Assembly (NCBI GenBank): GCA_016715065.1
Contig: JADKBN010000002.1
Coordinates: 212,286-276,285 of the forward strand
Direction: 5' to 3'
From: Fibrobacterota bacterium
Lineage (GTDB): Bacteria > Fibrobacterota > Fibrobacteria > UBA5070
Length of the DNA: 64,000 nucleotides
Shown here: positions 1,572-53,038 of the stretch, one piece after another
Layout of the letters: each line of letters starts with the position of its first letter
How positions within the stretch are numbered: the stretch's first letter is position 1
The notes under the pieces: generated by a model
Told to the model about the DNA's origin: nothing
The model's database searches: none
Seen by the model: the letters and a program-made list of their open reading frames with translations, nothing else
Program-made: the position numbers and the translations under genes

Positions 1572-1647
1572 ACGATCCGCGTTGAATAGGTAACGTCCGC
1601 ACGATTCCGCAATGACGCGGACGATGATCCAATGATTGGAATAGAAG

Positions 1648-2163
1648 ATGAGTTATGTGATGGTCGACGTGGAATCGGATGGTCCGATTCCCGGCAAGTT
1701 TTCGATGATCTGTTTCGGGGCCGTGATCGTGGAGCCCGGGCTGGAACGAACGTTCTACGCGGAGCTTCGCCCGATGTGGGAAGACTGGATTCCCGATGCC
1801 TTGCAGGTGTCCGGATTCTCCAGGGAGCAGACCCTCGCGTTTCCCGCACCTGAAAAGGCGATGGCGGACTTCGATGCGTGGCTGCGCCAGAACTGCCAGG
1901 GAAAACCGATGTTCGTCTCCGACAACAACGGGTTCGACTGGCAGTTCATCAACTGGTACTTCCACTGGTTTCTGGGGAAGAATCCGTTCGGATTCTCCTC
2001 CACCAACCTCGGGAGCCTGTACAAAGGACGTGTGGGGGATGTGACAAAAAACTTCAAGCATCTGCGGCGCACGCGCCACACGCACAACCCCGTGGACGAT
2101 GCCAAGGGCAACGCCGAGGCGATGTTGACCCTGCGTGAACAGGGACTGAAGTTTCCGATGTAG
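1648..2163 (+). CDS. DnaQ-like 3'-5' exonuclease (DEDDh family)
   Basis: 171-aa ORF; Exo I motif MVDVESDG, FVSDNNGFDWQFINWYF, C-terminal H..NPVDDA motif. Confidence 0.65.
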   Translation: MSYVMVDVESDGPIPGKFSMICFGAVIVEPGLERTFYAELRPMWEDWIPDALQVSGFSREQTLAFPAPEKAMADFDAWLRQNCQGKPMFVSDNNGFDWQFINWYFHWFLGKNPFGFSSTNLGSLYKGRVGDVTKNFKHLRRTRHTHNPVDDAKGNAEAMLTLREQGLKFPM

Positions 2164-2188
2164 GGATCAGGCATGCCTGCATCCCTAC
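2160..2188. terminator. Perfect palindrome GTAGGGATCAGGCATGCCTGCATCCCTAC between the convergent exonuclease and recD genes
   Basis: 8-bp stem GTAGGGAT/ATCCCTAC with a GCATGC-containing loop; overlaps the recD stop codon. Confidence 0.4.
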
Positions 2189-4074: not shown

Positions 4075-7000
4075 GGGGATCGCCTCGATTCCATCCAGGT
4101 GCGCACACGGCGATCCAAATCCGACGAATCGGCGTGGGCACCACAGGTCCAGATGCCGTGATCGGCCGTGGCGGGATCGGCGAAGGCCCGCAGATAAACC
4201 ACCACCCCGCCACCCCAGGATTCATGGGGCTTCAATGCGCGCGCGACGGATTGCCCATAGAGTTTGCCTTGGAGGTCGTAGCCGTGCGAACGCACCGATT
4301 CGTCCAAGGCTTCGGCGTTCCAAAGCGCCATGCTGGTGGTCTTCCAATCCAGGACATACCACTTGGATTCGTGGCGGAAGAGAAGGTCGATGTACCCCAC
4401 CATCCAACCGCGCGGTGCCTCGTGCGGCTTGGATGGGCCGCCAGCGGCGCCCACCGGCCAATGGAATTCCACCTCGGGCAGGCGGTCGGAGGCCGGCAGG
4501 TCGCAGAGGCGAACGCATGCCCCGCCGGGAAGTTCCATGGGTTGGAGCAGGACCGAGCGCAACAAGGTGACAATTTTTGGGGACATGGACGCATCCATTC
4601 CATGGGCGGACAAGGTGCCGGCGACCTCCCGTTCCCGCATCGGAAGGGTGGCGTCGTCGTGCACCCAGGCCAGACTCGAACCCGGAGACATCCAATCTTC
4701 CAGGATCTCGTGCAGGCAGTCGCCCGTGCGCGCGCCGCGCGGAAGCCACTCGTCGGCCGGCGCCGCCGTTGGCAGGGATGGATTTTCCGTCTCCGTCTCT
4801 TCGGAACGTTCCAGGCGCTCCCCCAAGGCATGGCTCTCCGGAACGGGAGCGTGGATGTCCGCCGTGACCTGGGTGAAGGACGTCTGCAACCGCGTCCGCG
4901 AAAGCAAGCGCAGGTCGGACAGATCCTGCCATCCGTGTGCCGTTGCCGGCGGTTCTTCCGTCCGCCGCGTTCCCGTCGGGGCTTCCAGAGGCTCCGGGGC
5001 CTGGTCCAAAAGGGCGATCCGGCTGCTCGCGTCCAGGCAGGGCCGGGCGAGATCGGATAGGGGGTCCAATGGCTTTTCCCTGTCGTTGAGGTGGCAAGGA
5101 ATCGCCAAGAGCAGTTTGGGGCGCGTGGCCGCGACATACACGAGTCGTCGCGTCTCCTGGTCCTTCTGCCGTTTGGCGATGGCCTTCACTTCTTCCACCG
5201 CATCGCGCAACGGGGTCTTGTCCGCCTTGCGTCCGGGAGCCGGGATGCAACCGGGCATCGCCTTGCGGCGGGAGCTTTCGGGATCGATCCAGGTGTACAC
5301 CGGGTGGCTGTTGCTTCCCCGCGAAGCACCCAGGAACACCACCGGGAACTCCAGCCCCTTGGAAACGTGCATGGTCAAAATCTGTACGCGGCCGCGGTCG
5401 GTGGCGCGGGCCATCAGGTTGCGATCGTCCGGGGCGTCTTCCAGTCCGTTGTCGATCCTGTCCAGGTGTTCGGCCAGCTCCTCCATCCCGCCACCGCCAG
5501 TCACCAGGAATTCCAATGCGTGTTGGCAGACCTGGCGCAGGTCCATCCACTCCCGGTCGCCCATCGGTCCTGACAAGATCCGTGCGCTCGCCGGGCCCTC
5601 CTGCGACAGGAGCCGGAACAGGCGTGCCCACCGCGCTTTGCGGGACAGGAATCGCGCTTCTTCCAGCAAGTCGTCCCGTCCGTCCAACAAGCGCGTGGCC
5701 AGAGCCATGGAGCGCCTCGATGCATCGGTGGGTGATCCGCAGAGGGCCAACAAGACGGTTCGTACTTCGAGCGCGGCGCGCGAGCGGAACACGCCTTCCT
5801 GCTTGTACAGCGCCCAGGGGATGGCGGCGCGATCGAAGGCGCGACGGAACGGGTTGGCCATGGACTTCGCGCTGACCACCACGGCGAAGTCGCTCCAATC
5901 CAGCACACGATCCTTCCACTGGTCTCCTTCCGGAACGGAAACAAGACGCCCCTTCAGGCCGAGGATCCATTCGGCGCATTGCCTGGCGTATTCCGCCCTG
6001 GCCGGAGCGGTCTTCCCTTGGAAGGGATGGATCCGCACGGGAGCGCGGCCCAGGTCTCCCGGTGGGGGATGCGGTGCCGGGGAGCGCGGGGGCGATGCCG
6101 CCCGGTTGGCGTGTTCGTACCGGATCCCCCCGTCCTGGAACCAGTCCTGGTGGTCCGCGTGGAGGATCAGGTCGTTGATGCCTTCGATGAGATCCGGCGA
6201 CGTGCGCCAATTGGTCTCCAGCGGCTGGCACACCGCGCCATGCGCTGACAATTCCTGACATGCATCCAGGTAGGTGTGGACATCGGCTCCCTGGAAGGAG
6301 TAGATGGACTGCTTCGGGTCGCCCACCAGATAGAGGTTCCCCGGCGGGGTCGTTCCCTTTTCCAGAAACAGGCTGCGGAAGATCTTCCATTGCAGAGGCG
6401 ATGTGTCCTGGAACTCGTCCACGATTCCGACCTTGAGCGTTCCTCGCAACAACGTGCGGAACTCGTCGCGCTCCAAGGCGCCCACCATGAAGGCGAGCAT
6501 GTCCTGGTAGGAAAGCCTTCCGCGGACGGCTTTGCGGGTGCGATGGAGGGAGGTGGCCTGGATCGCCCAGGCGACTTGGAACCGGGCGCACAGAACCACA
6601 TCCTGCTCGCTTCGCGGATCCGGCACGGGGTCCAGGAGGGAAGCCGGGTGGATGTCGGCATCCTGCAGCAGGGCCAGGGAAAGGTCCAAGGCGCCTTTGA
6701 TCTGGGCATCCGGCGATCTGCAATTCCAGGCCCGCGCGAACAGATCGGGATGCCGGAAATCGCCTTTCCACGAATCGTCGCGCAGCGCTTCGCGCAGCGC
6801 CTGTTCCAGCCCTTCCTCGTCGTCGGAAAGCTCGGGTGAAAACGAAATCCCCGACTCGAATGGAAATTGTCGCAGGATGCGCAGGCAAGCCGAATGGATG
6901 GTCCCGATCCACGCCTCGTGCATTTCGCGCAGGTTGGCTTCCAGATGGGCCTTGACGGGGCCTTGCGCCTTGGCGGCGGCCTCGGTCAGGCGTTTGCGCA

Positions 7001-7202
7001 CACGGGTGGCGAGTTCCTGGGCGGCCTTTTCCGTGTAGGTCACCAGCAGGATTTCTCGGATGTGCAGGCCGCGCACGGACACCAGATCCAACACCAGATT
7101 GGTGATGGCGTAGGTCTTGCCCGTTCCCGCATGGGCCTCCAGGATGCCGTGGCGATGAAGGTCCAGCTCAGGCATCGTCGGCCTCCGCTGCTGCCGGGCC
7201 AT
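4071..7202 (-). CDS. recB: Exodeoxyribonuclease V beta subunit RecB (UvrD-like helicase plus PD-(D/E)XK nuclease)
   Basis: 1043 aa; N-terminal AHAGTGKTYAI and TYTEKAA helicase motifs; C-terminal nuclease region GYIDLLF...YVLDWKT...YDLQGKLY. Confidence 0.85.
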   Translation of the reverse strand: MARQQRRPTMPELDLHRHGILEAHAGTGKTYAITNLVLDLVSVRGLHIREILLVTYTEKAAQELATRVRKRLTEAAAKAQGPVKAHLEANLREMHEAWIGTIHSACLRILRQFPFESGISFSPELSDDEEGLEQALREALRDDSWKGDFRHPDLFARAWNCRSPDAQIKGALDLSLALLQDADIHPASLLDPVPDPRSEQDVVLCARFQVAWAIQATSLHRTRKAVRGRLSYQDMLAFMVGALERDEFRTLLRGTLKVGIVDEFQDTSPLQWKIFRSLFLEKGTTPPGNLYLVGDPKQSIYSFQGADVHTYLDACQELSAHGAVCQPLETNWRTSPDLIEGINDLILHADHQDWFQDGGIRYEHANRAASPPRSPAPHPPPGDLGRAPVRIHPFQGKTAPARAEYARQCAEWILGLKGRLVSVPEGDQWKDRVLDWSDFAVVVSAKSMANPFRRAFDRAAIPWALYKQEGVFRSRAALEVRTVLLALCGSPTDASRRSMALATRLLDGRDDLLEEARFLSRKARWARLFRLLSQEGPASARILSGPMGDREWMDLRQVCQHALEFLVTGGGGMEELAEHLDRIDNGLEDAPDDRNLMARATDRGRVQILTMHVSKGLEFPVVFLGASRGSNSHPVYTWIDPESSRRKAMPGCIPAPGRKADKTPLRDAVEEVKAIAKRQKDQETRRLVYVAATRPKLLLAIPCHLNDREKPLDPLSDLARPCLDASSRIALLDQAPEPLEAPTGTRRTEEPPATAHGWQDLSDLRLLSRTRLQTSFTQVTADIHAPVPESHALGERLERSEETETENPSLPTAAPADEWLPRGARTGDCLHEILEDWMSPGSSLAWVHDDATLPMREREVAGTLSAHGMDASMSPKIVTLLRSVLLQPMELPGGACVRLCDLPASDRLPEVEFHWPVGAAGGPSKPHEAPRGWMVGYIDLLFRHESKWYVLDWKTTSMALWNAEALDESVRSHGYDLQGKLYGQSVARALKPHESWGGGVVVYLRAFADPATADHGIWTCGAHADSSDLDRRVRTWMESRRSP

Positions 7203-10200
7203 CCAGCGCCAACAGGGGGCCCAGCCGGCGATTCACCAGCGCGGTGAAATCCGTGGGGTCGTCGGCGGACTCGCCGGGAAGATCGGGACGCAGCAGTCGG
7301 TTCCATGTTTCGGGAAACGCGCTCTCTTCCAGCTTTTCGCGCAATGCCCAGGGGGAGGAGGGACGATGCTCCAGGATCGCCCGCGCGGGCAGATATTCGC
7401 TGGCGCCACGCGACAGGTCCCAGACAAGATCCGACAGCCAATGCTTCCAGCCGCCGCTCGCGACGGTCTTTCGCACCCAATCGAGTCCGCTTTCCCGTGG
7501 CGCGAAACGGATCTCGATGCGGCTCCATCCGGAAAAATCCAAGACCGCCGCCGACATCCAGGCGTTCATGGTGTTGTGGGTCCGGACTTCGGGCCCGCGC
7601 TTGGCGGATTTCAGTTCCACCTTGACGCAATCGAGGACCACCACATGACCTCTCGACGCGTCCACCAGCGCCAAGGGGATGCGGCCGGAAACGATGAACT
7701 CCCGTTGATCCTTCGTCCAGAGGCAGCGATCCGGCCTTCCCGCCGCACCCAACGACAGATTCTGGTTCTTGGCCAACGCGTGCTGCGGGAATTCGGCGCG
7801 CAGAGCCGCCATTCCCTTCCAGATCCACCTCGCCCAGTCTTCGAAAGAGGCAAGTTCGGTGCGGGCCAGCATCGATTCGGGAAAGGTGGCTTCCCACAGG
7901 CGCTCGTCCAGGATTCGATGGATTCGCTCCACGGGATCCGAGGTGGGATCCGACCAGGCGAGGCTCGCCAGCTCTCCGAAGAGCTCCGAGAGAAGGATCG
8001 CGCTTTGCAGGGAATCGGTGCCCAGCACCTCGTGGGACGCTTCCAGGGTGGCGGGAAGCTCCTCCTCCCGCCAGCCCAGCCGGCGGGCCAAGTCGTGGGA
8101 ATGGGGGTTTTTCAGGAAGCGACGGATTTCGGCAAGTTCCACCTGCACGGGACCTTCGAGGGGCGTGTCCGTCGGAGCGGGATCCGTTATTTGTCGGTCA
8201 TCGGCCTTCGGCCGATCCAGGGGATCCCACGAGATCGTATCGGAGCCGCCCTCGCGAGCCAGTAGCGGGACGGTCTCGCGGAAGTTCCCCTGGGCGATGT
8301 CGGCCAGAGCCTCTTCCAGTTCCAGCACCACGCTGGAGGGCTCCTTCTGCACGTCCTTCTGGAGGTCCTGGGAAAGCCAGGAAACCACCAGCCTTTCGCG
8401 TGCGGAAAGGATCGTCTGCAAGAACAGGGACCGGTTGTCGCGCACCGGGTGGAGATCGCCCACCAGCGGCGTTTTCGCCACCAGATCGATTCCCGACACG
8501 TCCTGCGATCCGGGGAAGGAATCCGCGTCCAGTCCCGCCACCGCCACGAATGCGTGGGGAAGGATGTGACCCGCGCGCAATGGCGCGAAGGTCAATGCCC
8601 CCGCGAAGGCCCGCGCGGGCGCGGGATTCTCGGATTCCAAGGCGCTGCGGACGATTTCGGACAGTTCGGCCAGATCGAGCCTCCGCTCGGGAGCCGTGTC
8701 CTGGAGGGATGTCCAATCCAGGGTTTCCAAAAATTGTCTGCGCATGCGCGATTCCGGCCCGGTGCCGGGATCCAGCCAGCGATCGCAAAGCTCTCCCAAT
8801 CCGCGGGCCGATGCCGATGGGGCGAGATCCGCGCAGCGGGAAACCAAGTCTCGCGTCTGGTGGAACAGCCTTTCCAGTGCCGTCGCGAAGCGGTCCACGG
8901 AGGAGAGGTCGCTTTCGAAATCCCCGACCGGCGAGATCCGTTCCCGAAACCCTTCCGGAACGGTCAAGCCGATGGAAGTGGCGCCGTGGGCCAGGGGTTC
9001 CAGGAAGAGTCGGGCCAACCCCGCTTTGAAGGTGTGCGGATCGTGGGCCACGGAAACCGCATCACCCGCTTCGCGCCGATGCGGGCCATCCCATGCGCGC
9101 AGCATCCCGGACTCTTCCGCCCACGATTCCCAGGTGGCCACGATTTCGGGATCGATGCCCAATTTCGCTTGGCACAGGGGATTGCGAAACAGCGCGAACA
9201 CGCCGGGGCGATCGGCCGGTTCTTCGCACAAACGCAACAGCGATTCCACACCGCGCGCCCAAAGGCTTTCGGATCCGGAAGAACCCAGCACGGTGTGCGG
9301 AATGAACCCGGGATCGCCGGGAGCGCGGCTTCCGAACACGGCCTCGATGGCCGCGCGATGCCGTGAGGGGTCGGGAAGGAGGACCACCGCGTCGGAAACC
9401 ATGCGGGAGGGATCTTCCGAGAGCCAATCCAGGAGCTGATCGCGCACGGCTTCCATCTCGCGGGTTCGCTCCGGAGAGGCCAACAGGCGGACGCTGCGAT
9501 CGGAATGGATCTTCTCAGACAAAATCCGACCATCCTCCAGTTCCAGCGGCGAGATGCCCGGGCCGGGATGGCGCCGTGCCAGGCAGTGCTGCAGGGTGGA
9601 AAGCGCCGTGGGATCCGCGTTCGCGGCGACGGGAGGCTCGACGGACATGGAGAAGTCGTAGTCGGTGGCCTGGCACCAAAGCGAGGTGTTTTCGCGCGAC
9701 GACCTTCCCCAACGCTCCAGGAGTTTCGGGTCGGCCAGGGCTCCTGCTGTCTGGGCTGGGTAAAAGCGATCAGCCAGGGATTGGGCTTGGTAGTCGTCGG
9801 GAGAAAATTTCGGGATCTTGGTTCCGTGGCGTTTGCGTGCGCGCCGGGATGTGTCCACATCTTCCCAGAATTCGGAGCAGGGGTTCTGCAGGAACAGGTG
9901 CACCTCGCGACCCTCGGACAGCTCCAACACGAGATTGCGGTGGAAATGGCTCACTTTTTCCAGTCCGAACAGGATCAGGGTGCCGCCTTGCGGGCGCCAT
10001 CCGGCTTCGCGGCGCAGCCGGTGCAAGCGCGGGAGGCCCAGCAATCCCGTTCCGGCCAAAGGGCCGGTGGTGGAAAACACCTCGCCGTGCAGTTCCCTCT
10101 GCCAGATTTCGTCATCGGATTCCGCGCTCGATGCGCGGGAGAAGTATCCACGCCGGGGCCAGCGGTGGTCCAGCCCTTCCACCGCCCATCGCCCTTCCCT

Positions 10201-40127: not shown

Positions 40128-40310
40128 CTTGGTTATCCTTTGCCCGCCTTCGGGTCTGCATGAATGCAGGTGCGCAAGCACCGGGAATGCCGTGAAAGAC
40201 GGCAGCGGACCAGCCACTGTGAAGGGAGAAACCCATTCGCCACGAGCCACTGGAGAGATCCGGGAAGGCGGCGAGAATCGGGGCCCTGAGCCAGGAGACC
40301 TACCCAGAGG
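40128..40310 (+). promoter_or_regulatory. Cobalamin (adenosylcobalamin) riboswitch
   Basis: AGGTGCGCAAGCACCGGGAA...GTGAAAGACGGC...GCCACTGTGAAGGGAGAAACC...GCCACTGG...CCGGGAAGG...AGCCAGGAGACCTACCC (B12 box) directly upstream of the TonB-dependent receptor gene. Confidence 0.7.
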
Positions 40311-40361
40311 CGCCGTTCCAAAAGGAGCGGCTTTCTTCCATGCCTCTGGAAACAGGCGGGG

Positions 40362-42341: not shown

Positions 42342-43414
42342 ACGCGAAGATCGCATGGATGATGATGGCTGGCACGTTGCTGGTTTCGTGTGGAGAAGAC
42401 CCGGTGGAGGAAGCCACGTCCTGCACCGAGGGCACGCGGATACTGGCACTGGGTCAGAAATTCGGATCGGGAGCCGACGAAGGATCCAGTTCGCTGGACC
42501 TGATCGGTTGCGGCAAAGTCCAGGCCCACGATCCGTCGCTGGGCATGCCGGCGCGATCGGACGTGGCGATCGATCTGGCGGGCGGGAACGTGTATGTGCT
42601 CGATCGCGCCAAAGGGGTCGTGTCGGGATTCGTCGGATCCGATCTGAGCAAGAACTTCCTGGACCAGAACGTGGGAGGTGCGGCCAATCCCTATGGCGTG
42701 GCGCGTCTGGGCGACCATCTGTGGGTGGCTCGCTACGGTTCCTCGCACCTTCTTGGCATCCCGTTCGGGGACGCCAAGGCCGACTCCATCGATCTTTCCT
42801 CCTTCGCCGACACCAGCACAGTCGTTCCGCGCATGATGGCGGCCAAGGTCTGGAAGGGAAAACTGGTGGTGCCGGTGCAGCGTCTGGACAAAAATTGGAC
42901 AGCAACAGATTCCAGCCTCGTTCTGGTGATCGATGTCGCCACATCCAAAGTGGAGAAGCGGATCGCCCTGCCCTTCCGCAATCCCGAAGACGTGGATCTG
43001 CGTGGCGACCTGCTGGCCTTGGCGTGTCTGGGCGGCTACGGAGCCGCACCGGACGGCGGTTTGGCGGTGGTGGATCTGGCCAAAGGCGTGGTGAGCGCCG
43101 CCATCTCCGGCGACCTGCTCGGCGGCGATCCGGCGCGCGTGGCGTTCACGTCCAACGACCGCGTCTGGGCGGCGCTGTACGTGAAGTACCCCACATACAA
43201 GGCGCTGCCGATCGACCTTTCCACCAAGAAGGTCGGGTCGTTCTTCCCCCAATCCGATGCGGTCGGGGATCTCGCTTTCGATGGCGCGTCGCTTTGGATC
43301 GCAAACCACGACGACAAGTCCCCCAAGGTCTATCGCCTCGACCCTGCGACGGGCGACATGACCGGCGAATACGCCACTCGTCTGGCCCCCGGACAGCTTC
43401 TGGTGCTTCCGTGA
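42338..43414 (+). CDS. Beta-propeller surface lipoprotein associated with the B12 uptake cluster
   Basis: Lipobox LLVSCGE; repeated YVLD/LWVA strand motifs; overlaps the receptor stop codon. Confidence 0.55.
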   Translation: MNAKIAWMMMAGTLLVSCGEDPVEEATSCTEGTRILALGQKFGSGADEGSSSLDLIGCGKVQAHDPSLGMPARSDVAIDLAGGNVYVLDRAKGVVSGFVGSDLSKNFLDQNVGGAANPYGVARLGDHLWVARYGSSHLLGIPFGDAKADSIDLSSFADTSTVVPRMMAAKVWKGKLVVPVQRLDKNWTATDSSLVLVIDVATSKVEKRIALPFRNPEDVDLRGDLLALACLGGYGAAPDGGLAVVDLAKGVVSAAISGDLLGGDPARVAFTSNDRVWAALYVKYPTYKALPIDLSTKKVGSFFPQSDAVGDLAFDGASLWIANHDDKSPKVYRLDPATGDMTGEYATRLAPGQLLVLP

Positions 43415-43950
43415 ACCAGTCCCTGGAGCTGTGGTTGGTGCGCCACGGCGAATCCACCTACAACGCCGAAGGACGCTACGCGGGATGGTCGGATCCTCCG
43501 CTGACCGAAGCCGGAACGGCCATGGCCGCCGCCTTGGCGCCGCGGCTGGCCGACAACGTATTTGAGGGAATCTGGCGCTCCGACAAGGTCCGCACCGAAC
43601 ACACCGCCCGCCTTGCCGGATTCCCGGACGCGAATGTGGACATCCGCCTTCGCGAAGTGGACTTTGGACAGATGGAAGGCAAGACCTACTTCGAGGTTGG
43701 GGAAGAATTGCGACACCAATTGCGGTCCTTCGCCGACTTCCAGGCTCCGGGAGGCGAATCCACCGCGCAGGTGCGATCCAGGGTCCATGATTTCCTGGCG
43801 GGTCTCCCTTCCGGCAAGCATCTGGTGTTCTGCCACGGCGGCTGGATCCGCTGCGTGCTGGCCGAATGCGGCACGGATCGATTTCCCGACAAAGCCGAAA
43901 TTTGTCGAGTGAAGTGGCCCGAGCGCGTGCTTTTGGAAGACCCCGCATGA
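43411..43950 (+). CDS. cobC: Alpha-ribazole phosphatase (histidine phosphatase family) CobC
   Basis: GTG 43411; LWLVRHGESTYN phosphoglycerate-mutase-family catalytic motif; located within the cobalamin cluster. Confidence 0.7.
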   Translation: MNQSLELWLVRHGESTYNAEGRYAGWSDPPLTEAGTAMAAALAPRLADNVFEGIWRSDKVRTEHTARLAGFPDANVDIRLREVDFGQMEGKTYFEVGEELRHQLRSFADFQAPGGESTAQVRSRVHDFLAGLPSGKHLVFCHGGWIRCVLAECGTDRFPDKAEICRVKWPERVLLEDPA

Positions 43951-43975
43951 CCGCGCCGCGCGCGATGGAGCCGGA

Positions 43976-44024
43976 GCCGTTCGTCCTGAGGAGGCCCTTC
44001 GGGCCGTCTCGAAGGGCGAACGGG
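43976..44024 (+). repeat. REP-like palindromic repeat family B, copy A (CCGTTCGTCCTGAGGAG...CGTCTCGAAGGGCGAACGG)
   Basis: One of 6 copies, all within 43.9-48.3 kb. Confidence 0.6.
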
Positions 44025-44065
44025 AAGGGGGTGTTCGGATGGTTGGGCGATCTCGCCTGCGCCAA

Positions 44066-44110
44066 ACGTTCGCTCCGCCGCCCTTCGAGACGCCTCTCCG
44101 AGGCTCCTCA
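44066..44110 (-). repeat. REP-like repeat family B, copy B (inverted relative to copy A, ~40 bp away)
   Basis: CCGCCGCCCTTCGAGACG...CTCCTCAGGACGAACGG. Confidence 0.6.
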
Positions 44111-44161
44111 GGACGAACGGAGCGACTTGTTAAGACTCGGCGAATCGCCGGTGGTATCCGC

Positions 44162-46261
44162 ATGACCGCCCGCGCCTTGATGGTCTGGGGTTGCACCTCG
44201 GATGCCGGCAAGTCCTTTTTGGCCACCGCGCTTTGCCGCTGGTACGCCGACCAAGGCCTTCGCGTGGCCCCCTTCAAGGCGCAGAACATGTCCAACAACG
44301 CCCGCGTGGTGGACGAGGGCGAGATCGGGTGCGCCCAGTGGTTCCAAGCCATGGCCGCCCGCAAGCGCCCCGAGGTCAGACACAACCCGGTGCTCCTGAA
44401 GCCCGAATCCGACACCAGAAGCCAAGTGGTGGTGATGGGCCAGGTGGACCGGGAATTGTCCGCAATGGACTGGCGCGGACGTTCCGCGCTTTTGTGGGAG
44501 CGCGCTCGCGGTCCCTTGCGCGAATTGATGTCAGAAAACGACTTGGTGGTTCTGGAAGGGGCCGGGTCGCCCGCAGAAATCAATTTGGCGGGATGCGACT
44601 TCGCCAACCTCCACAGCGCGCGTGAATCCGCTGCGCGATGCCTGTTGGTTTCCGACATCGATCGCGGCGGATCGTTCGCGCATCTGCACGGCACCTGGGC
44701 GCTGTTGCCGGAAGATCTGCGCGGGAACCTGGACGGATTCATCCTCAACAAGTTCCGCGGCGACCCGAAACTGCTTGCGCCAGGTCCGGCGCATCTGGCC
44801 CGCCTGACCGGCGTGGACGTGGTGGGGGTGGTGCCTCGCGTGGCCCACCAGTTGCCAGACGAAGACGCCGTGGCCTTGGATCAATTCAGTGCATCATCAT
44901 CCGGCCCGATCCGCCACCGGGTGGGGATCGTGGCCTGGCCGCGCATCTCCAACTTTGACGAATTCCGTCGGCTGGCGGCGTGGCCGGGGGTGGAAGTGGT
45001 CCTGGTGCGCGGGAGCGGCCAGTGCGCCGGATTGGACCTGGTGATCCTGCCCGGCTCCAAGAACGCCCCTTCGGATCTTGCCTGGCTTCGCGAACGGGGA
45101 TTGGATCGCGCCCTGGGAGAACACGCCCGGGCGGGACGTGCGGTGCTGGGGGTTTGCGGCGGACTGCAGGCGTTGGGAAGGGAAATCCTGGATCCGGCGG
45201 GAACCGAAGGCGAAGGGACAGGACTGGGGCTTCTGGATCTGGCCACCGTCCACGGCGCGGATAAAAGAGTGGGCGCTCTGCGTGCGCGCATCCCCCGGAT
45301 GGACGGATTCTGGCAAACCATTTCCGGACTCGATGTGTCGGGATACCAGATCCGCACCGGCGCCACGGCGGGATGCGATCCGTTGTCCCAGGCGGGATTG
45401 TTTCGCCAAAGCGGGAATGTCCTGGGCACCTATCTGCACGGGATGCTGGAAGATGCCGCGGTCCTCGGTGCGCTGTTCGGGCAAGGGGGGGCGACGGAAG
45501 ACCCCTTGGAGGCCACGTTCCGGGAAATGGGGGAGCTGGTGGACAATCATCTGGACCGCAAGGTGCTCGAGGCCATCGCTTCGGGATCGAAAACGTCCAA
45601 GGGAAAAGGGGCTTCGCCAAGGCTTGCCGTTCTCACCGGAGGCGTGCGCGCAGGCAAATCCACGGCAGCGCAGGAATTGTCCTTGCGGTGGGGTGGAGCG
45701 GACGTCACGGTGATCGCCACGGCCCAAGGGCTTGACGAAGAAATGCTCCTGCGCATCCGCACGCACCAAGCGGATCGCCCATCGGACTGGGAAACCATCG
45801 AGGAGCCTCTCGACGTTGGGGGCGCCATCCGCCGCGCCAAAGGCCGGGTGGTGCTGCTGGATTGCATGAACCTGTGGATCACCAACCTCCTCCTTTTTGG
45901 TTGCGATCCGGCTGCTCCAGGCCAACTCGATTCCGTTCGTCCTGAGGAGGAGGCGACCTGCAACGAGATGGGTCGAAGCGAGCCTCCGTCTCGAAGGGCG
46001 GACGGAGCAATCACACCAGATCAGAAGCCGAAAGCTGATTTCCGTCAGCCGGTCGAAGACATGCTTGCAGCCTTGCGCGAAACGGGCAAGGACCTGGTGG
46101 TGGTCACCAACGAAGTCGGCTGGGGGATCGTCCCCGACAACGCATTGTCCCGCGAATTCCGCGACCAGCTGGGATGGGCCAACCAGCGGCTGGTCGCCTC
46201 GTCCACGGAAGCCTGGCTCTATGTGGCCGGAGCTCGCCTTTCTCTGAAAGACCCATCATGA
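44162..46261 (+). CDS. cobQ: Cobyric acid synthase CobQ fused to adenosylcobinamide kinase / adenosylcobinamide-phosphate guanylyltransferase CobU
   Basis: N-terminus MTARALMVWGCTSDAGKS (CobQ P-loop) and glutamine-amidotransferase domain; C-terminal CobU P-loop LTGGVRAGKST...VTNEVGWGIVP; the ORF start at 44039 is a repeat-derived extension. Confidence 0.8.
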   Translation: MTARALMVWGCTSDAGKSFLATALCRWYADQGLRVAPFKAQNMSNNARVVDEGEIGCAQWFQAMAARKRPEVRHNPVLLKPESDTRSQVVVMGQVDRELSAMDWRGRSALLWERARGPLRELMSENDLVVLEGAGSPAEINLAGCDFANLHSARESAARCLLVSDIDRGGSFAHLHGTWALLPEDLRGNLDGFILNKFRGDPKLLAPGPAHLARLTGVDVVGVVPRVAHQLPDEDAVALDQFSASSSGPIRHRVGIVAWPRISNFDEFRRLAAWPGVEVVLVRGSGQCAGLDLVILPGSKNAPSDLAWLRERGLDRALGEHARAGRAVLGVCGGLQALGREILDPAGTEGEGTGLGLLDLATVHGADKRVGALRARIPRMDGFWQTISGLDVSGYQIRTGATAGCDPLSQAGLFRQSGNVLGTYLHGMLEDAAVLGALFGQGGATEDPLEATFREMGELVDNHLDRKVLEAIASGSKTSKGKGASPRLAVLTGGVRAGKSTAAQELSLRWGGADVTVIATAQGLDEEMLLRIRTHQADRPSDWETIEEPLDVGGAIRRAKGRVVLLDCMNLWITNLLLFGCDPAAPGQLDSVRPEEEATCNEMGRSEPPSRRADGAITPDQKPKADFRQPVEDMLAALRETGKDLVVVTNEVGWGIVPDNALSREFRDQLGWANQRLVASSTEAWLYVAGARLSLKDPS
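45932..46004 (+). repeat. REP-like repeat family B, copy C, inserted in-frame inside the CobU domain
   Basis: TCCGTTCGTCCTGAGGAGGAGG...CGTCTCGAAGGGCGGACGG encodes ...SVRPEEEATCNEMGRSEPPSRRADG... between the NLLLF and VVVTNEVG motifs. Confidence 0.6.
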
Positions 46262-47292
46262 TTCTTGACATCGAACCAAAACATGTTGATGCCGCGCTCG
46301 CGCGGCAGAACCAACTCCTCAAGATTCCCGGATCGCTGGGGATGCTGGAAGAAATCGGAAACCGGATCGCGGCCATCCAGCGCACGGACCGTCCATCGCT
46401 GGGCAAAGGGGCCGTGGTGGTCTGTTGCGCCGACCACGGCGTGACGTCGGAATCCGTCGCGGCCTTCCCCGATTCCATCACCCGCATCCAAACGTTGAAT
46501 TTCCTGGAAGGGGGAGCGGCGATCAACCAGATCGCGCTCACCAGCGGCGCCGACCTCTGGGTGGTGGACGCGGGCGTCAAAGGGGAGGAAATCCCGACGC
46601 ATCCGCGATTGGTGGGGCCGCGCGTGCGGGCCGGTACGGGAAACATCGCCCGTGAGTCGGCCATGACCCGCGAGGAGGCCATGCAGGCTCTGGACCTGGG
46701 GCGCAAGGCGGCCCGCCGGGCGATCGACGCGGGGGCGCAGGTGCTGGCCGCAGGCGACATGGGGATCGGGAACACCACGCCCAGTTCGGCGCTCACCGCC
46801 GCGATCCTTGGACTGGATGCGGACCTGGTCACGGGCCGCGGATCGGGGATGGACGACGAGGGGAGGATCCGCAAGGCAAAAATTGTCGACATGTCCGTGG
46901 CCCGCGCGCGGATGGTCCTGGGCGACCTGGCGGCGGCCGATCCCATCGACCTCCTGGCGCACCTGGGGGGACTGGAGATCGCGGCCATCGCAGGTGTGTA
47001 CCTGGAAGGCGCCACCCGAGGCGTTCCGTTGGTGTGCGACGGCTTTCCCGTGACCACCGGCGTGCTGGTGGCCTCCCGCCTCGATCCGGCCGTCAAGCAG
47101 TACTTGTTCGCGGGCCATCAGTCCATGGAGCCGGGACACGCCTGGCAGCTGCGCGACCTGGGCCTGGAGCCCGTGTTCCGCCTGGGGCTGCGCCTGGGCG
47201 AAGGAACCGGAGCCGTGTTGGCCTTCCCCGTGATGCGGGCGGCATGTCAGATTCTGGCCGGAATGAAGACCTTCGCCGACATCGGGATGTAG
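46258..47292 (+). CDS. cobT: Nicotinate-nucleotide--dimethylbenzimidazole phosphoribosyltransferase CobT
   Basis: MILDIEPKHVD...; DMGIGNTTPSSAL motif; ATGA overlap with the cobQU stop. Confidence 0.85.
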   Translation: MILDIEPKHVDAALARQNQLLKIPGSLGMLEEIGNRIAAIQRTDRPSLGKGAVVVCCADHGVTSESVAAFPDSITRIQTLNFLEGGAAINQIALTSGADLWVVDAGVKGEEIPTHPRLVGPRVRAGTGNIARESAMTREEAMQALDLGRKAARRAIDAGAQVLAAGDMGIGNTTPSSALTAAILGLDADLVTGRGSGMDDEGRIRKAKIVDMSVARARMVLGDLAAADPIDLLAHLGGLEIAAIAGVYLEGATRGVPLVCDGFPVTTGVLVASRLDPAVKQYLFAGHQSMEPGHAWQLRDLGLEPVFRLGLRLGEGTGAVLAFPVMRAACQILAGMKTFADIGM

Positions 47293-47325
47293 AGACGTGA
47301 AGATTCCATCGGCGAAGCGGGAGAG

Positions 47326-47372
47326 TCCGTTCGTCCTGAGGAGGGGCGCAGCCTCGTCTCGAAGGGCGGAAG
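47326..47372 (+). repeat. REP-like repeat family B, copy D (between cobT and cobS; it ends at the cobS ribosome-binding site)
   Basis: TCCGTTCGTCCTGAGGAGGGGCGCAGCCTCGTCTCGAAGGGCGGA. Confidence 0.6.
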
Positions 47373-47376
47373 AGGA

Positions 47377-48102
47377 ATGAGTCCATTCTGGCTTGCCTGG
47401 TCGTTTTTGACGGTTTTTCCGGCGCCGGGCCAGAAGGTGGCCACCTCCGAGGAATTCGTGCGCTCGCGGGTCTGGTATCCGGCAGTGGGCCTTGCCTTGG
47501 GCTGCCTGTGGGGCGGTGCCGCCTGGTTGGTGGGGCATTGGAATCCGCCCGCCGGGTTGACCGGGGTGGTTTTGTTGGCGGTGGGGCTTCTGGCCACGGG
47601 GTTTCTCCACTTCGATGGCCTGCTGGACAGCGCCGACGCCTTGTTGGCGCCCCGCACTCCCCAACGGCGATTGGAGATCCTCAAGGACGTCCACATGGGA
47701 TCGTTCGCGTTGGGGGTTGGTGGTCTGTGGCTGATCGGGATGTGGCAAGTTTTGTCCATGGGTGTCGATTGGCGTTTTTTGGTGGCCTTGCCGGTCCTTT
47801 CGCGTGCGGCTCTGCTGGTGCCCATCCACTTGTTCCCGTACGCGCGCGCCGTGGACGCAAGCTCCTTGGACCGGTCCGCAAAGGGCCTGGCGTGGCGTTG
47901 GGTGTTTCCCGTATTGTCCTGCGCCCCGGCAGTCTGGCTCTTCCCCGCCCAAGCCCTCACCGTATTGGGCATACAGATCGCGGGCGCGTGGTGGGCCTCT
48001 CGCAAGCTCGGGGGCGGGATCACCGGCGACATCTACGGGGCCTTGCTGTGTTTGTCGGAATTTGGCGCCTTGACCCACCATGTTTTGGGAGTTCCCCGAT
48101 GA
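47377..48102 (+). CDS. cobS: Adenosylcobinamide-GDP ribazoletransferase (cobalamin synthase) CobS
   Basis: 241-aa polytopic membrane protein with CobS topology and conserved motifs (...GDIYGAL...). Confidence 0.85.
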   Translation: MSPFWLAWSFLTVFPAPGQKVATSEEFVRSRVWYPAVGLALGCLWGGAAWLVGHWNPPAGLTGVVLLAVGLLATGFLHFDGLLDSADALLAPRTPQRRLEILKDVHMGSFALGVGGLWLIGMWQVLSMGVDWRFLVALPVLSRAALLVPIHLFPYARAVDASSLDRSAKGLAWRWVFPVLSCAPAVWLFPAQALTVLGIQIAGAWWASRKLGGGITGDIYGALLCLSEFGALTHHVLGVPR

Positions 48103-48146
48103 ATTCGATTGGATGTCCACGAAGGGGGGCAATGAACCGGTGGAAA

Positions 48147-48198
48147 TCCGTTCGTCCTGAGGAGCGAGGCTTGCCCTCGCGTCTCGAAGGGCGGACGG
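48147..48198 (+). repeat. REP-like repeat family B, copy E
   Basis: TCCGTTCGTCCTGAGGAGCGAGGCTTGCCCTCGCGTCTCGAAGGGCGGACGG. Confidence 0.6.
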
Positions 48199-48250
48199 GA
48201 ATGAATTTCTCGAAAGATTTAAGATGAATCGTCTTCGCCAGTCTACTCCA

Positions 48251-48295
48251 CCGTCGCCCTTCGAGACGCGCCTGCGGCGCTCCTCAGGACGAACG
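48251..48295 (-). repeat. REP-like repeat family B, copy F (inverted relative to copy E)
   Basis: CCGTCGCCCTTCGAGACGCGCCTGCGGCGCTCCTCAGGACGAACGG. Confidence 0.6.
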
Positions 48296-48319
48296 GCGCG
48301 ATTTTTGTCCATCCAGAAC

Positions 48320-49159
48320 ATGCTTGCTCTGAGCGGACTGGTTTTGTCGGTTGGGTGCGGCAATCCGCCGGCGCCTGCCCGGACGGACCTTCCCCGTCGG
48401 ATCGTATCGGTGACCATCACCGGCGATGTGGTCTTGCAGGCCTTGGTGGATTCGTCGCGGGTGTTGGCGGTCTCGGCCTTGGCCGACGACTCGGGAATCC
48501 ACGAGGCCGCAGGGCTGTTTCCCGCCAAACCCCGCGTCGGTCCCGATCTGGAGCGCATCGTGTCGATGCGGCCGGACCTGGTGCTGTTGGGCTCTTTCCA
48601 CGACCCGGCGTTTCTGCACGCCATCCGCCAATCCGGTCTTCCGGTGGAAGTGTTGGAAAGTCCGCGATCGTTTGAAGATGTCCGTGGATTTTTGCGGAGG
48701 GTGTCAGGGCGATTGGGCTCTGGGGCGTCCGGAGACAGCTTGGTGGGCTGGATGGACTCCACCTTGAATGCGGCACGGGAGAAAACTCGTGGGTGTCCCG
48801 GAAAGCCAAGGGTGTTGTACTGGTCGGACGGCTACACGGCGGGGGATTCTTCCACGGTGGGAGAAATGTTGGAATGGATCGGGGCCAAGAACGCCGCTGC
48901 CGAGCTGGGACTTACCGGCTCCAAACCGATTTCGGTGGAAGATGCCCTGCGACTGGCCCCGGATTGGGTGCTGCGCAGCGGATGGGAAGGCATGGGAGGC
49001 ATGAAGGCTTTCCCGCAGGCGCTGCAAGATCTTCCCGCGGTGCGCGATGGGCGCGTGGTGGTGGTTCCCGGGAAATGGCTGTTGTCCACCTCGCATCGCA
49101 TGGCGTTTGGAGCCGATTCCCTGGCTCGATCCCTCGCCGGGGCTTGCAAAGGAAGGTGA
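48320..49159 (+). CDS. btuF: Periplasmic cobalamin/siderophore-type ABC substrate-binding lipoprotein (BtuF-like)
   Basis: ATG 48320 gives MLALSGLVLSVGCG (lipobox); RIVSVTITGDVVLQALV...IVSMRPDLVLL pattern of PBP type 8; the ORF start at 48224 is a repeat-derived extension. Confidence 0.7.
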   Translation: MLALSGLVLSVGCGNPPAPARTDLPRRIVSVTITGDVVLQALVDSSRVLAVSALADDSGIHEAAGLFPAKPRVGPDLERIVSMRPDLVLLGSFHDPAFLHAIRQSGLPVEVLESPRSFEDVRGFLRRVSGRLGSGASGDSLVGWMDSTLNAAREKTRGCPGKPRVLYWSDGYTAGDSSTVGEMLEWIGAKNAAAELGLTGSKPISVEDALRLAPDWVLRSGWEGMGGMKAFPQALQDLPAVRDGRVVVVPGKWLLSTSHRMAFGADSLARSLAGACKGR

Positions 49160-50267: not shown

Positions 50268-51536
50268 ATGCGCTTTTGTCTTCTTTTTGCGTTTTTCCAA
50301 GTGCCCGTCTTGGCCGCCGGCCTACCCGTCACCTTCGAGACCGGAAGCGGAGCGAAGGCTGCGCAAGTGAACCAGAACTTCAAGTACCTGGACAGCGCCG
50401 TAAACAACCACGCGAAGCAACTGGAAAACAAAGCGGATCAATCCGCCGTGCTGGGAATTGTCTCCATCGTGGGCGCCAAGGTGGACACCGCCGCCTTGAC
50501 CACACGATTGACCAAGTACGTCGCCACCACGGGATTGTCTTCCTACGCGACCAGTGCGACCCTGACCACCGGCTTGGGCGCCAAGGTGGATACGGCCAAA
50601 CTGGCCGCCGCATTGGGCAAAGAGGTGGATACCGCAGCGCTCACCACCCGATTGGGCGACTATGCGAAAACCTCCGCTCTGAGCGATTACGCGAAGACCT
50701 CGGCGCTTTCCGGCTACGCGACCTCTGCGGCGCTCACCACGGGCCTGGCGACCAAACCAGATCGCTCCGAGGTGATGGTCGTGGGCAAAACGGGCGCGGT
50801 GATCCCGACTTCCGTGGCGGTGAGTGGAACGGATCCGGAGATCAAAGCAGGGCTGTTCCACGCTGCTGAGTGGGCAATTGACTTTCCACACGGACACATC
50901 GCGACCTCCTACGGGTTTCCAGCCTGGTACGTGGAGGCGAACTCCGAGGATGGCTTCCGGATCGGCCGGTATGGCGGCGGTCCCACGAGCCCCATCTTTC
51001 ATCTCGAGATCCTGCAGGGTACGGGCATCACGCTGCGTGGCGCCGTCAAGACCACGGATTCTCTGGTGGTGGGCAAAAACTTGCGCGTAACGGGAAAGAT
51101 CACCGCCGTTGCGGCGGGATCTGTCATTCCGGATTATGTCTTCGAGCCGGAGTACAAGCTTGCAACCCTTCGCGAGGTGGAATCCTTCACCCAAGCCAAC
51201 AAGCATCTGCCGGATGTTCCAAGCGCGGCAGAAATCAAAGCCGGGGGACTGGACCTGACGGAGATGAACCTCACGCTTTTGCGCAAGGTGGAAGAACTGA
51301 CTCTCCACGCCATCGCCCAGGAAAAGCGCATCCAAAATCCTGGAAACCCTGCTGACAAAGTGACCATAGCCACCTGGAAGGGCCCCAGGAAACTAAGTGG
51401 GCATCCGGAGGCCGTCGCTCCCTCACGGCAGGGGATTGCCTCGGGGATCGCGGAGGTATTTACTTTCAGGGCGTCAATCAACCGCCATCTCCCGGAGCTT
51501 CCATGCACACCAACCTCTTGCTGCTTGCCTCACTGA
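50268..51536 (+). CDS. Secreted protein with a tail-fiber-like C-terminal domain (paralog 2), with a possible frameshift at its 3' end
   Basis: Signal peptide MRFCLLFAFFQVPVLAA; KVDTAALTTRL repeats; C-terminal IPDYVFEPEYKLATLREVESFTQANKHLPDVPSA...LTLHAIAQEKRI followed by an atypical 65-aa extension that overlaps the next gene. Confidence 0.55.
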   Translation: MRFCLLFAFFQVPVLAAGLPVTFETGSGAKAAQVNQNFKYLDSAVNNHAKQLENKADQSAVLGIVSIVGAKVDTAALTTRLTKYVATTGLSSYATSATLTTGLGAKVDTAKLAAALGKEVDTAALTTRLGDYAKTSALSDYAKTSALSGYATSAALTTGLATKPDRSEVMVVGKTGAVIPTSVAVSGTDPEIKAGLFHAAEWAIDFPHGHIATSYGFPAWYVEANSEDGFRIGRYGGGPTSPIFHLEILQGTGITLRGAVKTTDSLVVGKNLRVTGKITAVAAGSVIPDYVFEPEYKLATLREVESFTQANKHLPDVPSAAEIKAGGLDLTEMNLTLLRKVEELTLHAIAQEKRIQNPGNPADKVTIATWKGPRKLSGHPEAVAPSRQGIASGIAEVFTFRASINRHLPELPCTPTSCCLPH

Positions 51537-53038
51537 CCACCGTCTCGGTGGCGGGCGTACCCAACACATTCAAGATCAGCGACCCAGCCAAAGCCGAACT
51601 GGTCAACGCAAACTTCAAGTACTTGGATAGCGCGGTGGGCACCAAAGCAGACACTGCCGCCCTCAGCGCCCTGAAGGCAAGCATTCCTGCCAGTGTGAAC
51701 ATCGGTGGCAAGGTGGACACCGCCGCGCTCACCACCCGCTTGAATGGCTATGCCGCCGCGGGCACTGTTGCCGCTGCTTTGGGTGCCAAAGCCGACACCA
51801 CCGCGCTGAACGCGGTCAAGGCGAGCATTCCCGTGGGTGTGAACATCGGTGGCAAGGTGGACACCGCCGCACTCACCGTGCGGCTGGCCGGTTACGCTCC
51901 CGCCGGGGCTCTGGCAAATTTTGCCACGACCAGTTCCTTGGCGGCCTATGCGACCTCCGCTGCCCTGACCAATTGACTGGGCGCCAAAGCCGACACTACC
52001 GCATTGAACGCGGTGAAGGCGAGCATTCCTGCCGGCGTGAACATCGGCGGCAAAGTGGACACCGCCGCGCTCACCACGCGCCTGACCAGCTACGCCAAGT
52101 CCACCGATCTTGCCACCTACGCCAAGTCCACCGACCTGACTGGGTTCGCCAAGACAACGGATCTTTCTGGATATGCCACCGCCACCTCTCTAGCCAACTA
52201 TGCCCCGCTGACCACTCTTGCCAGTTACGCGAAGTCCACCGACCTCGCTGGCTATGCCACCACGACATCGCTGGCCACCTACGCGCCGCTCACCACTCTC
52301 GCCAGCTACGCCAAGACCACAGATTTGTCGGTCTATGCCAAGACTGCCGCCCTTGCTTCTTACGCCACCACCGCCGCCGTGGCCGGAAAAATGAACACCG
52401 CCGATTACGTGGCGAGCGGTCACCTCAAGGCATTGGGCGGGATCACTGGTGGGCGAGGGATGAGCGGGTCGTTCGTGGGGAGCAACCTCATCCTGGATAC
52501 AAACGAACTCCGGATGGAAAACGCGGGGAACTTCACCCTTCTCAACAACACCTCGCTCATTTGGCGCCAGGAGTACAGTGGATGGACGATCAAAACTGGC
52601 GATGACTTTAGGATTGTTAGAAACACCCGGTCATTCGACTTTACCGGTTTGATCCTCACAGACTTCAAGGCGGAATTTCCCAACAGCGTGGCGATCGGTG
52701 GAGAATTCACAGTCGCTGGTGCGACGCAATTTTCCGGTGACGTGAAGATCGACGGCGCCCTGACGGTCCAGGGTGTGAACGTTCCCGATTACGTGTTCGA
52801 GTCTGATTACAAGCTGGCCCCGTTGGCTGAAGTCGAAGCCTACACCCAGGCCAACAAGCACCTGCCGGAAGTGCCCAGCGCCAAGGAAATCGAGGCTGGC
52901 GGAATGGATCTGGCCAAGATGAACCTGACACTGCTTCGCAAGGTGGAGGAGCTCACCCTCCATGCCATCGCTCAGGAAAAGCAGATCAAGAGCCAGAGCG
53001 ACCGGCTCCAAGCCCTGGAATCCCGGCTGGCCAACTGA
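51503..53038 (+). pseudogene. Tail-fiber-like paralog 3, interrupted by an in-frame TGA at 51974-51976 (ORFs 51503-51976 and 52004-53038 are in the same frame)
   Basis: Signal peptide MHTNLLLLASLTTVSVAG; repeated ALNAVKASIP.GVNIGGKVDTAALT units on both sides of the stop; C-terminal VPDYVFESDYKLAPLAEVEAYTQANKHLPEVPSA...LTLHAIAQEKQI. Confidence 0.6.

Follow-up and report, generated by a model that had tools for sequence, protein, structure and literature searches.

We show that the 64,000-nucleotide stretch of DNA analysed here (the window; positions 212,286 to 276,285 of contig JADKBN010000002.1, assembly GCA_016715065.1, from a Fibrobacterota bacterium) carries six copies, designated A to F, of a palindromic repeat, all of them within one predicted cobalamin salvage operon. 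With a probability of about 0.6, we read these copies as non-autonomous DNA elements similar to repetitive extragenic palindromes (REPs) and to the inverted REP pairs known as REPINs, belonging to a widespread and apparently uncatalogued family. The family is unusual in its dense occupation of one operon and in the conservation of its core across phyla. Comparisons with relatives support that the window copies behave as inserted DNA, and one copy is read in frame within a conserved enzyme.

The 17-base 5' arm of the repeat, CCGTTCGTCCTGAGGAG, has six exact matches in the window against 0.38 expected, a number reached in none of 100 shuffles, and the 3' arm, CGTCTCGAAGGGCGGACGG, has five matches at three or fewer mismatches against 0.07 expected; copy F, the tail of which has diverged, is the sixth copy. 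A covariance model (R1) built from 85 aligned copies and run over the whole window with filters off scores the six copies at 43-64 bits. Because the runner-up, the antisense strand of copy A, scores just 17.8 bits, the six are the only copies in the 64 kb, and they are confined to 4.3 kb (43977-48296). Copy A (43977-44023, plus strand, sense to the operon, 64.5 bits) and copy B (44074-44120, minus strand, antisense, 60.5 bits) are the two halves of an inverted doublet between cobC and cobQ. Copy C (45933-46005, plus strand, 43.2 bits) lies in frame in the CobU domain of a cobQ-cobU fusion, and copy D (47327-47373, plus strand, sense, 57.5 bits) stands singly between cobT and cobS. Copy E (48148-48198, plus strand, sense, 61.3 bits) and copy F (48246-48296, minus strand, antisense, 59.4 bits) form a second inverted doublet between cobS and a btuF-like gene. 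Copy D stops 3 nt upstream of the cobS ATG at 47377, and its decayed 3' tail, GGAAGAGGA, supplies the cobS Shine-Dalgarno sequence. The number of copies, their restriction to 4.3 kb of the window, the two inverted pairs, the copy ending at the cobS ribosome-binding site and the copy inside the cobQ-cobU open reading frame (ORF) had all been proposed in a preliminary description of this stretch, and pattern matching, the covariance model and the copy orientations bear them out. Its term "cluster-restricted" is accurate for the window and fails for the family: an exact-core scan of one genome per species returned at least 104 loci, and viral contigs, scanned with somewhat relaxed criteria, gave at least 120. 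This wide occurrence bears, at the level of the family, on the refuting condition set in that description, a repeat ubiquitous genome-wide. The window also contains another GC-rich palindrome (GAGACGCCCCG-CGGGGCGTCTC) at 15729-15804 and 30456-30482, with arms 93% complementary between the two sites and R1 scores of 13-14 bits.

All six copies share one unbranched hairpin fold, with folding energies of -22.7 to -39.6 kcal/mol and z values of -2.1 to -6.0, which answers the suggested check by RNA folding; the copy A hairpin alone reaches -33.8 kcal/mol (z -6.0). Each doublet can fold as a single long structure, at -98.4 kcal/mol (z -7.8) for A/B (43977-44120) and -88.8 kcal/mol (z -8.9) for E/F (48148-48296). 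The stem has about 20 pairs in three parts: a variable outer stem, a near-invariant core and a variable apical stem. The asymmetric core, UGAGGAG / CGUCUCGAA, includes a single G·U pair, a single A·G mismatch and a bulge of two bases (GA), while in the central part of the element the sequence differs in each copy but the pairing is always kept. Across 85 related copies among the matches listed, with the core fixed by the search pattern, 89.7% of cells are paired; sliding the partner lowers this to 44-54%. Double changes make up about 45% of cells at the four apical pairs. Because the search pattern had fixed the core in this alignment, we recounted covariation on a second alignment of copies retrieved by the model and not by the pattern. 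There, the inner pairs of the outer stem covary (AU 33 and GC 12; CG 32 and GC 15), with outer-stem variants that include CGUCC/GGGCG, CAUCC/GGAUG, CAUGG/CCAUG and CAUGC/GCAUG, and the core is almost unchanged. These results uphold the earlier description of imperfectly complementary, REP-like palindromic arms, to which they add that the stems covary around a conserved core. Together, the fold z values and the covariation in both variable stems identify the repeat as a short imperfect palindrome forming a stem-loop, the general hallmark of REPs.

Several features of the hairpin bear on whether it functions at the DNA or the RNA level. Apical stems consist almost wholly of Watson-Crick pairs, with 3 G·U against 4 A·C, and GNA triloops (GCA, GAA, GGA or GTA) close 44 of the 85 apical stems among the matches listed. 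C-GNA-G is an exceptionally stable DNA mini-hairpin, so the triloop preference points to a structure formed at the DNA level. Alternatively, the hairpins could be kept mainly for an RNA role in the polycistronic cob mRNA, as protection from 3'-to-5' exonucleases, as processing sites or as modulators of coupling. Mobility would then be merely their route of arrival, and a widely conserved RNA-binding factor would bind the core; this explanation, which partly overlaps the interpretation as a mobile element, is possible but in our judgement rather unlikely. It would fit the strand specificity of the fold, in that the named strand of every copy folds better than its complement, and the treatment of G·U pairs: the core G·U persists in 47 of 48 copies retrieved by the model, and one outer-stem position is U·G 30 times and A·C never. 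It would also fit the very high stability of the doublets at two gene junctions (-98 and -89 kcal/mol) and the presence in the core of AGGAG, a Shine-Dalgarno-like sequence held in a helix. Selected RNA hairpins usually have GNRA or UNCG loops, however, and the near-exclusive Watson-Crick pairing and GNA triloops of the apical stems argue against selection for RNA, as do the antisense orientation of half of each doublet and the lack of any match to an Rfam family. As background, REPs have been discussed as RNA elements (PMC3733652), and those of Bradyrhizobium lie in 3' untranslated regions (UTRs) and are transcribed (PMC5082802), both of which count in favour of an RNA role.

In NCBI, the window matches contig DIAU01000065.1 of GCA_002414805.1, and the nearest named relative is a Fibrobacterota metagenome-assembled genome. 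At the head of the operon that holds the copies stand a promoter-like site and a cobalamin riboswitch (40135-40321, 90.9 bits in Rfam), followed by genes for a TonB-dependent receptor, a hypothetical protein, a cobC-type phosphatase (43411-43950), the cobQ-cobU fusion (44162-46261, with the working cobQ ATG at 44162), cobT (46258-47292), cobS (47377-48102) and a btuF-like binding protein. A syntenic relative, L107, has a CobQ-CobU protein 80% identical to that of the window (BLASTP; 85% over gap-free columns), and no copy was found in the 14 kb of L107 scanned with the covariance model. In L107, cobC/cobQ, cobU/cobT and cobS/btuF overlap directly and the cobT/cobS gap is 2 nt, and nucleotide alignments reveal clean empty sites at all four window insertion positions. 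Two further lineages of this clade have copies of their own. L108, which encodes the CobQ-CobU protein P0004, has five: two form a pair at cobC/cobQ, two more are paired in the CobQ-CobU linker, and the fifth sits alone in the CobU loop that copy C occupies. L109, which encodes P0012, has a pair in the linker. The proteins P0005 and P0006, 90-91% identical to P0004, and P0010, 91% identical to P0012, are all without inserts, and empty sites are apparent at the nucleotide level in L110 (P0010) and L111 (P0006), where L109 and L108, respectively, are filled. On these alignments, we consider it supported that the window copies are insertions. That close relatives have the same operon without any copy also speaks against an RNA role. 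In favour of such a role, C and D, both of them single, are sense to the operon, as is the leading member of each doublet in the window, L108 and L109.

The A/B doublet shows a further sign of insertion. The cobC-stop/cobQ-start junction, which is single in L107, is duplicated around A/B (local alignment score 15.5, shuffle p ~0.001), with the left copy, CCGCATGACCGCGCCGCGC, at 43943-43961 and the right copy, CCGCATGACCGCCCGCGC, which contains the cobQ ATG at 44162, at 44158-44175, both on the plus strand. Flank duplications that are apparent by eye at C, D and E/F fail shuffle tests, leaving A/B as the only significant case in the window, and every comparison of a doublet spacer with its flanks, made to see the spacers as target copies, was non-significant. 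At site C, it is suggestive that both flanks align to the same residues, 108-112, of the solved homologue 8yep_A.

An explanation without recent transposition in this lineage is that the copies are old, and that their absences reflect repeated precise deletion or their presence the movement of insert-bearing segments by homologous recombination. The direct repeats around A/B would favour precise loss, each host of a CobU insert has an insert-free sister 85-91% identical to it, and the cobC/cobQ junction is occupied in three lineages. Yet neither apical stem of the window doublet at cobC/cobQ matches that of its L108 counterpart, the two spacers measure 50 nt and about 100 nt, respectively, the L109 junction is filled by a different, related family, and sites D and E/F are filled in the window alone among the six cob operons compared. 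Since the element, moreover, plainly spreads elsewhere, we regard this explanation as improbable. The L109 junction occupant (5712-6000) is itself an inverted pair of a related, shorter repeat, CCGTTCGCCCTGAGCCTGTCGA ... GTCGACAAGCTCAGCACGAACGG, and its CTGAGC...GTCGAAG module is also found nested in the apical stem of Sphingomonadales copies (L010, L017 and L044).

In an alignment of 24 CobQ-CobU fusions, the window protein has 42 extra residues between NLLL and the helix preceding VVVTNEVG, a segment lacking in nearly all orthologues; about 24 of these residues are encoded by the hairpin and the remainder by non-repeat flanks. The AlphaFold model of CobQ-CobU has a mean predicted local distance difference test (pLDDT) score of 83.7, while residues 581-623, which cover the insert (45902-46030, plus strand, comprising copy C and its flanks), score below 50 and have no secondary structure, lying between helices 569-579 and 628-641. 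In addition, the alignment with 8yep_A breaks into two blocks, one before and one after the insert. Because orthologues lack it, its modelled confidence is below 50 and the homologue splits around it, we take copy C to be an in-frame insert in a disordered loop, and the model supports the view that it is tolerated within an otherwise confident CobU fold. The alignment, the AlphaFold model and 8yep_A thus agree with the preliminary description that copy C is translated in a CobU loop with the frame intact, and the comparison of CobU length with orthologues that it had recommended came out as expected; its estimate of about 22 extra residues was too low, the actual insert being 42 residues relative to orthologues.

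At this same CobU site, copy C and the L108 copy have in common the apical stem GAGGC-GCA-GCCTC and a 12-base left flank, GCCAACTCGAYT, in hosts that are 70% identical. The two differ by about 24 extra bases (GACCTGCAACGAGATGGGTCGAAG...) in the apical-stem loop of copy C, which keep the frame (window 45952-45988 against L108 2792-2806). The common stem and flank point to either transfer by recombination or one old insertion followed by repeated precise loss, and count in favour of the explanation without recent transposition. In the linker between the CobQ and CobU domains (alignment columns 480-620), the proteins P0015, P0018, P0021 and P0022 have other low-complexity inserts, such as GSVVELVETPDP...LVSTGSTTG and ...MDSPVKPGNDDE. 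By their sequences, these appear to be translated copies of other palindromic repeat families, and repeats appear to have landed in the linker more than once.

Each intergenic insertion in the window is spanned by a short ORF that restores a chain of stop and start codons. At cobC/cobQ, an ORF of 72 codons (43947-44165, plus strand), called as a 72-residue gene in the public record, reads through copies A and B; it starts at an ATG sharing bases with the cobC TGA and stops at a TGA sharing bases with the cobQ ATG, the sequence being ATGA in both cases. At cobT/cobS, an ORF of 27 codons (47297-47380, plus strand) starts with a GTG 5 nt past the cobT TAG, reads through copy D and ends with a TGA that overlaps the cobS ATG. 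At cobS/btuF, an ORF of 42 codons (48099-48227, plus strand) begins with an ATG overlapping the cobS TGA, reads through copy E and ends with a TGA overlapping the ATG at 48224, from which an in-frame extension into the btuF-like gene (48224-48319, plus strand) reads through copy F. In composition-preserving shuffles, the chance of an intact chain is 0.058 for A/B, 0.125 for D and 0.035 for E. Comparable ORFs bridge the cobC/cobQ junctions of L108 (510-803, 97 codons, TAATG to ATGA) and of L109 (5708-6004, 98 codons, ATGA to ATGA), the latter across the different repeat family. The btuF-like gene (48224-49159) is publicly annotated from 48224 as a 311-residue protein that includes the copy F peptide, and its L107 orthologue has 282 residues; the true start is likely the ATG at 48320, which would open a lipoprotein signal peptide, MLALSGLVLSVGC, and fits the 282-residue orthologue better. 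The N-terminal extensions that had been described as spurious are indeed created by the copies, but they belong to a chain of overlapping ORFs across every intergenic insertion, and they and the bridging ORFs may well be translated.

All six copies therefore lie inside sense-strand reading frames (the bridging ORFs, the btuF extension and cobU), and ribosomes would melt the hairpins there, a further difficulty for an RNA role. For the mobile-element interpretation, this arrangement suggests the following scenario. The copies would have entered one riboswitch-controlled operon, with three junctions (cobC/cobQ, cobT/cobS and cobS/btuF) and the CobU surface loop as the four points of entry, and only insertions that kept the succession of reading frames unbroken would have survived, with junction copies bridged by short ORFs and the cobU copy accommodated as a disordered loop. 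The bridging ORFs would matter because ribosomes must traverse the hairpins: they would keep translational coupling and avoid polarity. We infer that insertions survived in this coupled operon only where ribosomes could continue through them.

Beyond the window, the genome loci among the matches listed are found in many Alphaproteobacteria (Bradyrhizobium, Rhodoplanes, Sphingomonas, Methylosinus, Bosea and Afipia), in several Fibrobacterota metagenome-assembled genomes, and in Gemmatimonadota, Actinomycetota, Coxiellaceae and others, with several genomes contributing 3-5 contigs each. Within the same set, 96 of 113 copies are intergenic according to a crude gene caller, the usual position being shortly past the end of a gene, and 69 of 114 units are inverted doublets; the model also finds a diverged partner in opposite orientation adjoining most pattern matches. 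Apical stems are often common within a genome and among related genomes, which fits spread by copy-and-paste: L021, L070 and L071 have the stem types of E/F, and four Rhodovulum contigs have identical stems. A tblastn search with nine proteins of the cob cluster gave no match at the 104 listed loci, and the association with cobalamin genes is particular to this clade. Where a single copy lies no more than 150 nt past the end of a gene, as placed by the same crude caller among the matches listed, it is more often sense than antisense (38 against 18, n = 56, p = 0.01), a bias that would be expected if the hairpins had an RNA role.

The family is also present on viral contigs. One of them (L183, IMG/VR contig 3300012358_000010) has seven copies in about 9 kb (720-9836), and several others have 3-4 copies, so dense local clusters are not unique to the cob operon. 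The ORFs that recur beside the 120 listed viral-contig copies, judged by sequence without a family search, are ordinary phage structural proteins, and these loci look like the structural regions of alphaproteobacterial prophages or gene-transfer agents.

Under the mobile-element interpretation, a trans-acting enzyme would recognise the core and copy or move the element in the form of single-stranded DNA. Several points weigh against this interpretation. No enzyme of this kind was found: the 40 ORFs of the window include no Pfam match to a transposase, and no protein family recurs beside the 104 listed genome copies, where clusters from all-against-all ORF comparisons are syntenic or spurious. 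Flanking duplications are a weak general signature, as among the matches listed 5 of 103 units score 10 or more, against 0.5% of controls. REPs are normally lineage-specific, and a 16-base core that is near-identical across several phyla, unusual for them, would be just as compatible with a functional RNA or with a site for a host factor. Finally, the sense bias of single downstream copies could reflect selection at the RNA level. As to gene detection, a caller based on third-position GC content worked for high-GC loci and missed many window genes, and the window ORFs were read by ORF and Pfam scans. A small gene for a GIY-YIG nuclease abuts the repeat in L098 (3525-3860) and L002 (4486-4818) and lies about 1.4 kb away in L067 (3926-4126); with 3 of 104 listed loci, these are too few for a conclusion, and we did not retain this nuclease as the partner gene.

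It is tempting to go further and propose that the core (UGAGGAG / CGUCUCGAA) is the recognition site of a widely distributed factor, that the repeats form a distinct, uncatalogued class of structured single-strand elements that spread independently of REP-associated tyrosine transposases (RAYTs), and that bridging ORFs set a rule for the persistence of insertions in coupled operons, a rule that to our knowledge has not been described for REPs. We consider this extended proposal speculative and unlikely to hold in full.

Whatever mobilises the element, our findings add a clear example, from outside Rickettsia, of a conserved enzyme whose reading frame runs through a palindromic repeat, with empty and filled sites in close relatives. 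They also illustrate that one small operon can remain intact after four separate insertions, and the bridging ORFs suggest a simple survival rule for insertions between coupled genes. The repeats also give rise to annotation artefacts, which here include the 72-residue "gene", a 32-residue false N-terminus on the btuF-like lipoprotein and spurious peptide similarities among unrelated proteins. Given its conserved core, wide distribution and lack of an Rfam entry, the family could be considered for curation, along with a search for its partner protein.

Other features of the window are of separate interest. On the minus strand, a single ORF (31260-33266) has AAA_26 (dethiobiotin synthetase-like) and class-III aminotransferase domains, an apparent BioD-BioA fusion that adjoins a class I/II aminotransferase gene (33259-34563) and lies upstream of a radical-SAM BioB-like gene. 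Nine 27-nt coding repeats stand head-to-tail (YAKSTDL-like) at 52059-52374, and related repeats of 40-150 nt occupy 50472-52130, in both cases in ORFs without a Pfam match. A proline-rich tract with 9-nt periodic repeats is located at 15791-16957.

Comparison with Rfam and with published REP families identified no counterpart. No Rfam family matches any copy at its gathering threshold, in the window or at 15 other loci; the matches above threshold are the cobalamin riboswitch, one tRNA and the ffh sRNA, none of which overlaps the element, and the best overlapping matches are TLS-PK1 (24.5 bits against a threshold of 80) and RAGATH-10 (21.4 against 41.2). The ffh sRNA motif (RF01793) is found at L005 3430-3481 and L012 7586-7637 (55.7 and 58.2 bits), no more than about 10 nt from a doublet in L005 and about 1.5 kb from the nearest copies found in L012. 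A full-text literature search for the core sequences returned unrelated primer matches alone.

The conserved ends and variable centre of these imperfect palindromes, together with their position at the borders of genes, might also suggest recombination sites such as integron attC, with the cob genes as cassettes, or, given the CUGAGGA in the 5' arm and the GAA in the 3' arm, hammerhead-type ribozymes (CUGANGA ... GAA). Integron attC sites have conserved R''/R' core sites and lie at the 3' end of mobile cassettes, and their consensus ends are RYYYAAC / GTTRRRY. The outer ends of the window family instead covary freely and do not keep these consensus ends, gene order is identical in relatives without the sites, the fold is a single unbranched hairpin and not a three-way junction, and no Rfam ribozyme family matches even at E values up to 10. 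On structure, synteny and the Rfam result we rejected both possibilities, which we consider very improbable indeed.

Among mobile elements, miniature inverted-repeat transposable elements (MITEs) have terminal inverted repeats derived from insertion sequences (IS) and a fixed short target duplication; no related IS was found among the window ORFs or beside the listed genome copies, most units of this family are without flanking repeats, and the clear case, A/B, has flanking repeats at least 18 nt long. REPs and REPINs are mobilised by RAYT transposases in E. coli and Pseudomonas (PMC3116915, PMC2817692). The window family resembles them as short imperfect palindromes that are mostly extragenic near gene ends, are present in operons and form inverted pairs that fold into a long hairpin, as the two inverted copies and short spacers of A/B and E/F and the doublets among the listed units illustrate. 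It differs in lacking a GTAG head and in the unrelated sequences of its doublet spacers, and its near-identical core across phyla sets it apart from the lineage-specific, vertically inherited REPIN-RAYT systems. A cognate RAYT (Y1/IS200-like) gene flanked by repeats was seen neither in the window nor near the 104 genome loci listed, and no protein of this kind recurs beside the 120 viral copies listed; the search for such a transposase that had been recommended was likewise negative among the 40 window ORFs and beside the listed genome copies. The original label of a mobile MITE/REP-type element thus stands as regards a REP-like palindrome and inserted DNA, but assignment to MITEs or RAYT-type REPs is unproven because no transposase was found and a clear target duplication is present at one site only.

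Members of the CGTC-tagged REP superfamily (Di Nocera et al. 2013, PMC3733652) are defined by a CGTC head that stays unpaired, a stem of 8-9 bp with AT at its beginning, a loop of 4-5 nt and a tail of CCA. Like the window family, they are mainly alphaproteobacterial yet reach several phyla, are often dimers, have no dedicated transposase known and include intragenic copies, and window copies also begin with CGTC. In the window family, however, this CGTC is base-paired with GGGCG and is replaced by CATC, CATG or CGTG in sister copies with compensating changes, and the element has a bulged stem of about 20 pairs with an A·G mismatch, mostly 3-nt loops and no CCA tail. As these defining features are absent, and the sequence is missing from the supplementary files of PMC3733652, we rejected membership in the GTAG- or CGTC-tagged REPs. 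The Br-REP1 and Br-REP2 repeats of Bradyrhizobium and Rhodopseudomonas, palindromic repeats in 3' UTRs that are transcribed (Hahn et al. 2016, PMC5082802), occur in the same bacterial groups that carry the window family, but their published consensus sequences, CCGGAATCTCGAGATTCCGG and ...GATTCCGGGTTCGGCTCTTCGAGCCGCCCCGGAATGA, are unrelated to UGAGGAG...CGUCUCGAA, which excludes identity.

In behaviour, the closest parallel for copy C is offered by the Rickettsia palindromic elements (RPEs), which are found as in-frame inserts in protein genes (cited in PMC3733652). The two appear to belong to different sequence families and have different hosts, RPE-1 is longer, and the window family, unlike RPEs, also fills gene junctions that are bridged by short ORFs. 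In both, a palindromic repeat is translated as an extra segment of an intact conserved protein, inserted in frame at a structurally permissive site outside the folded core.

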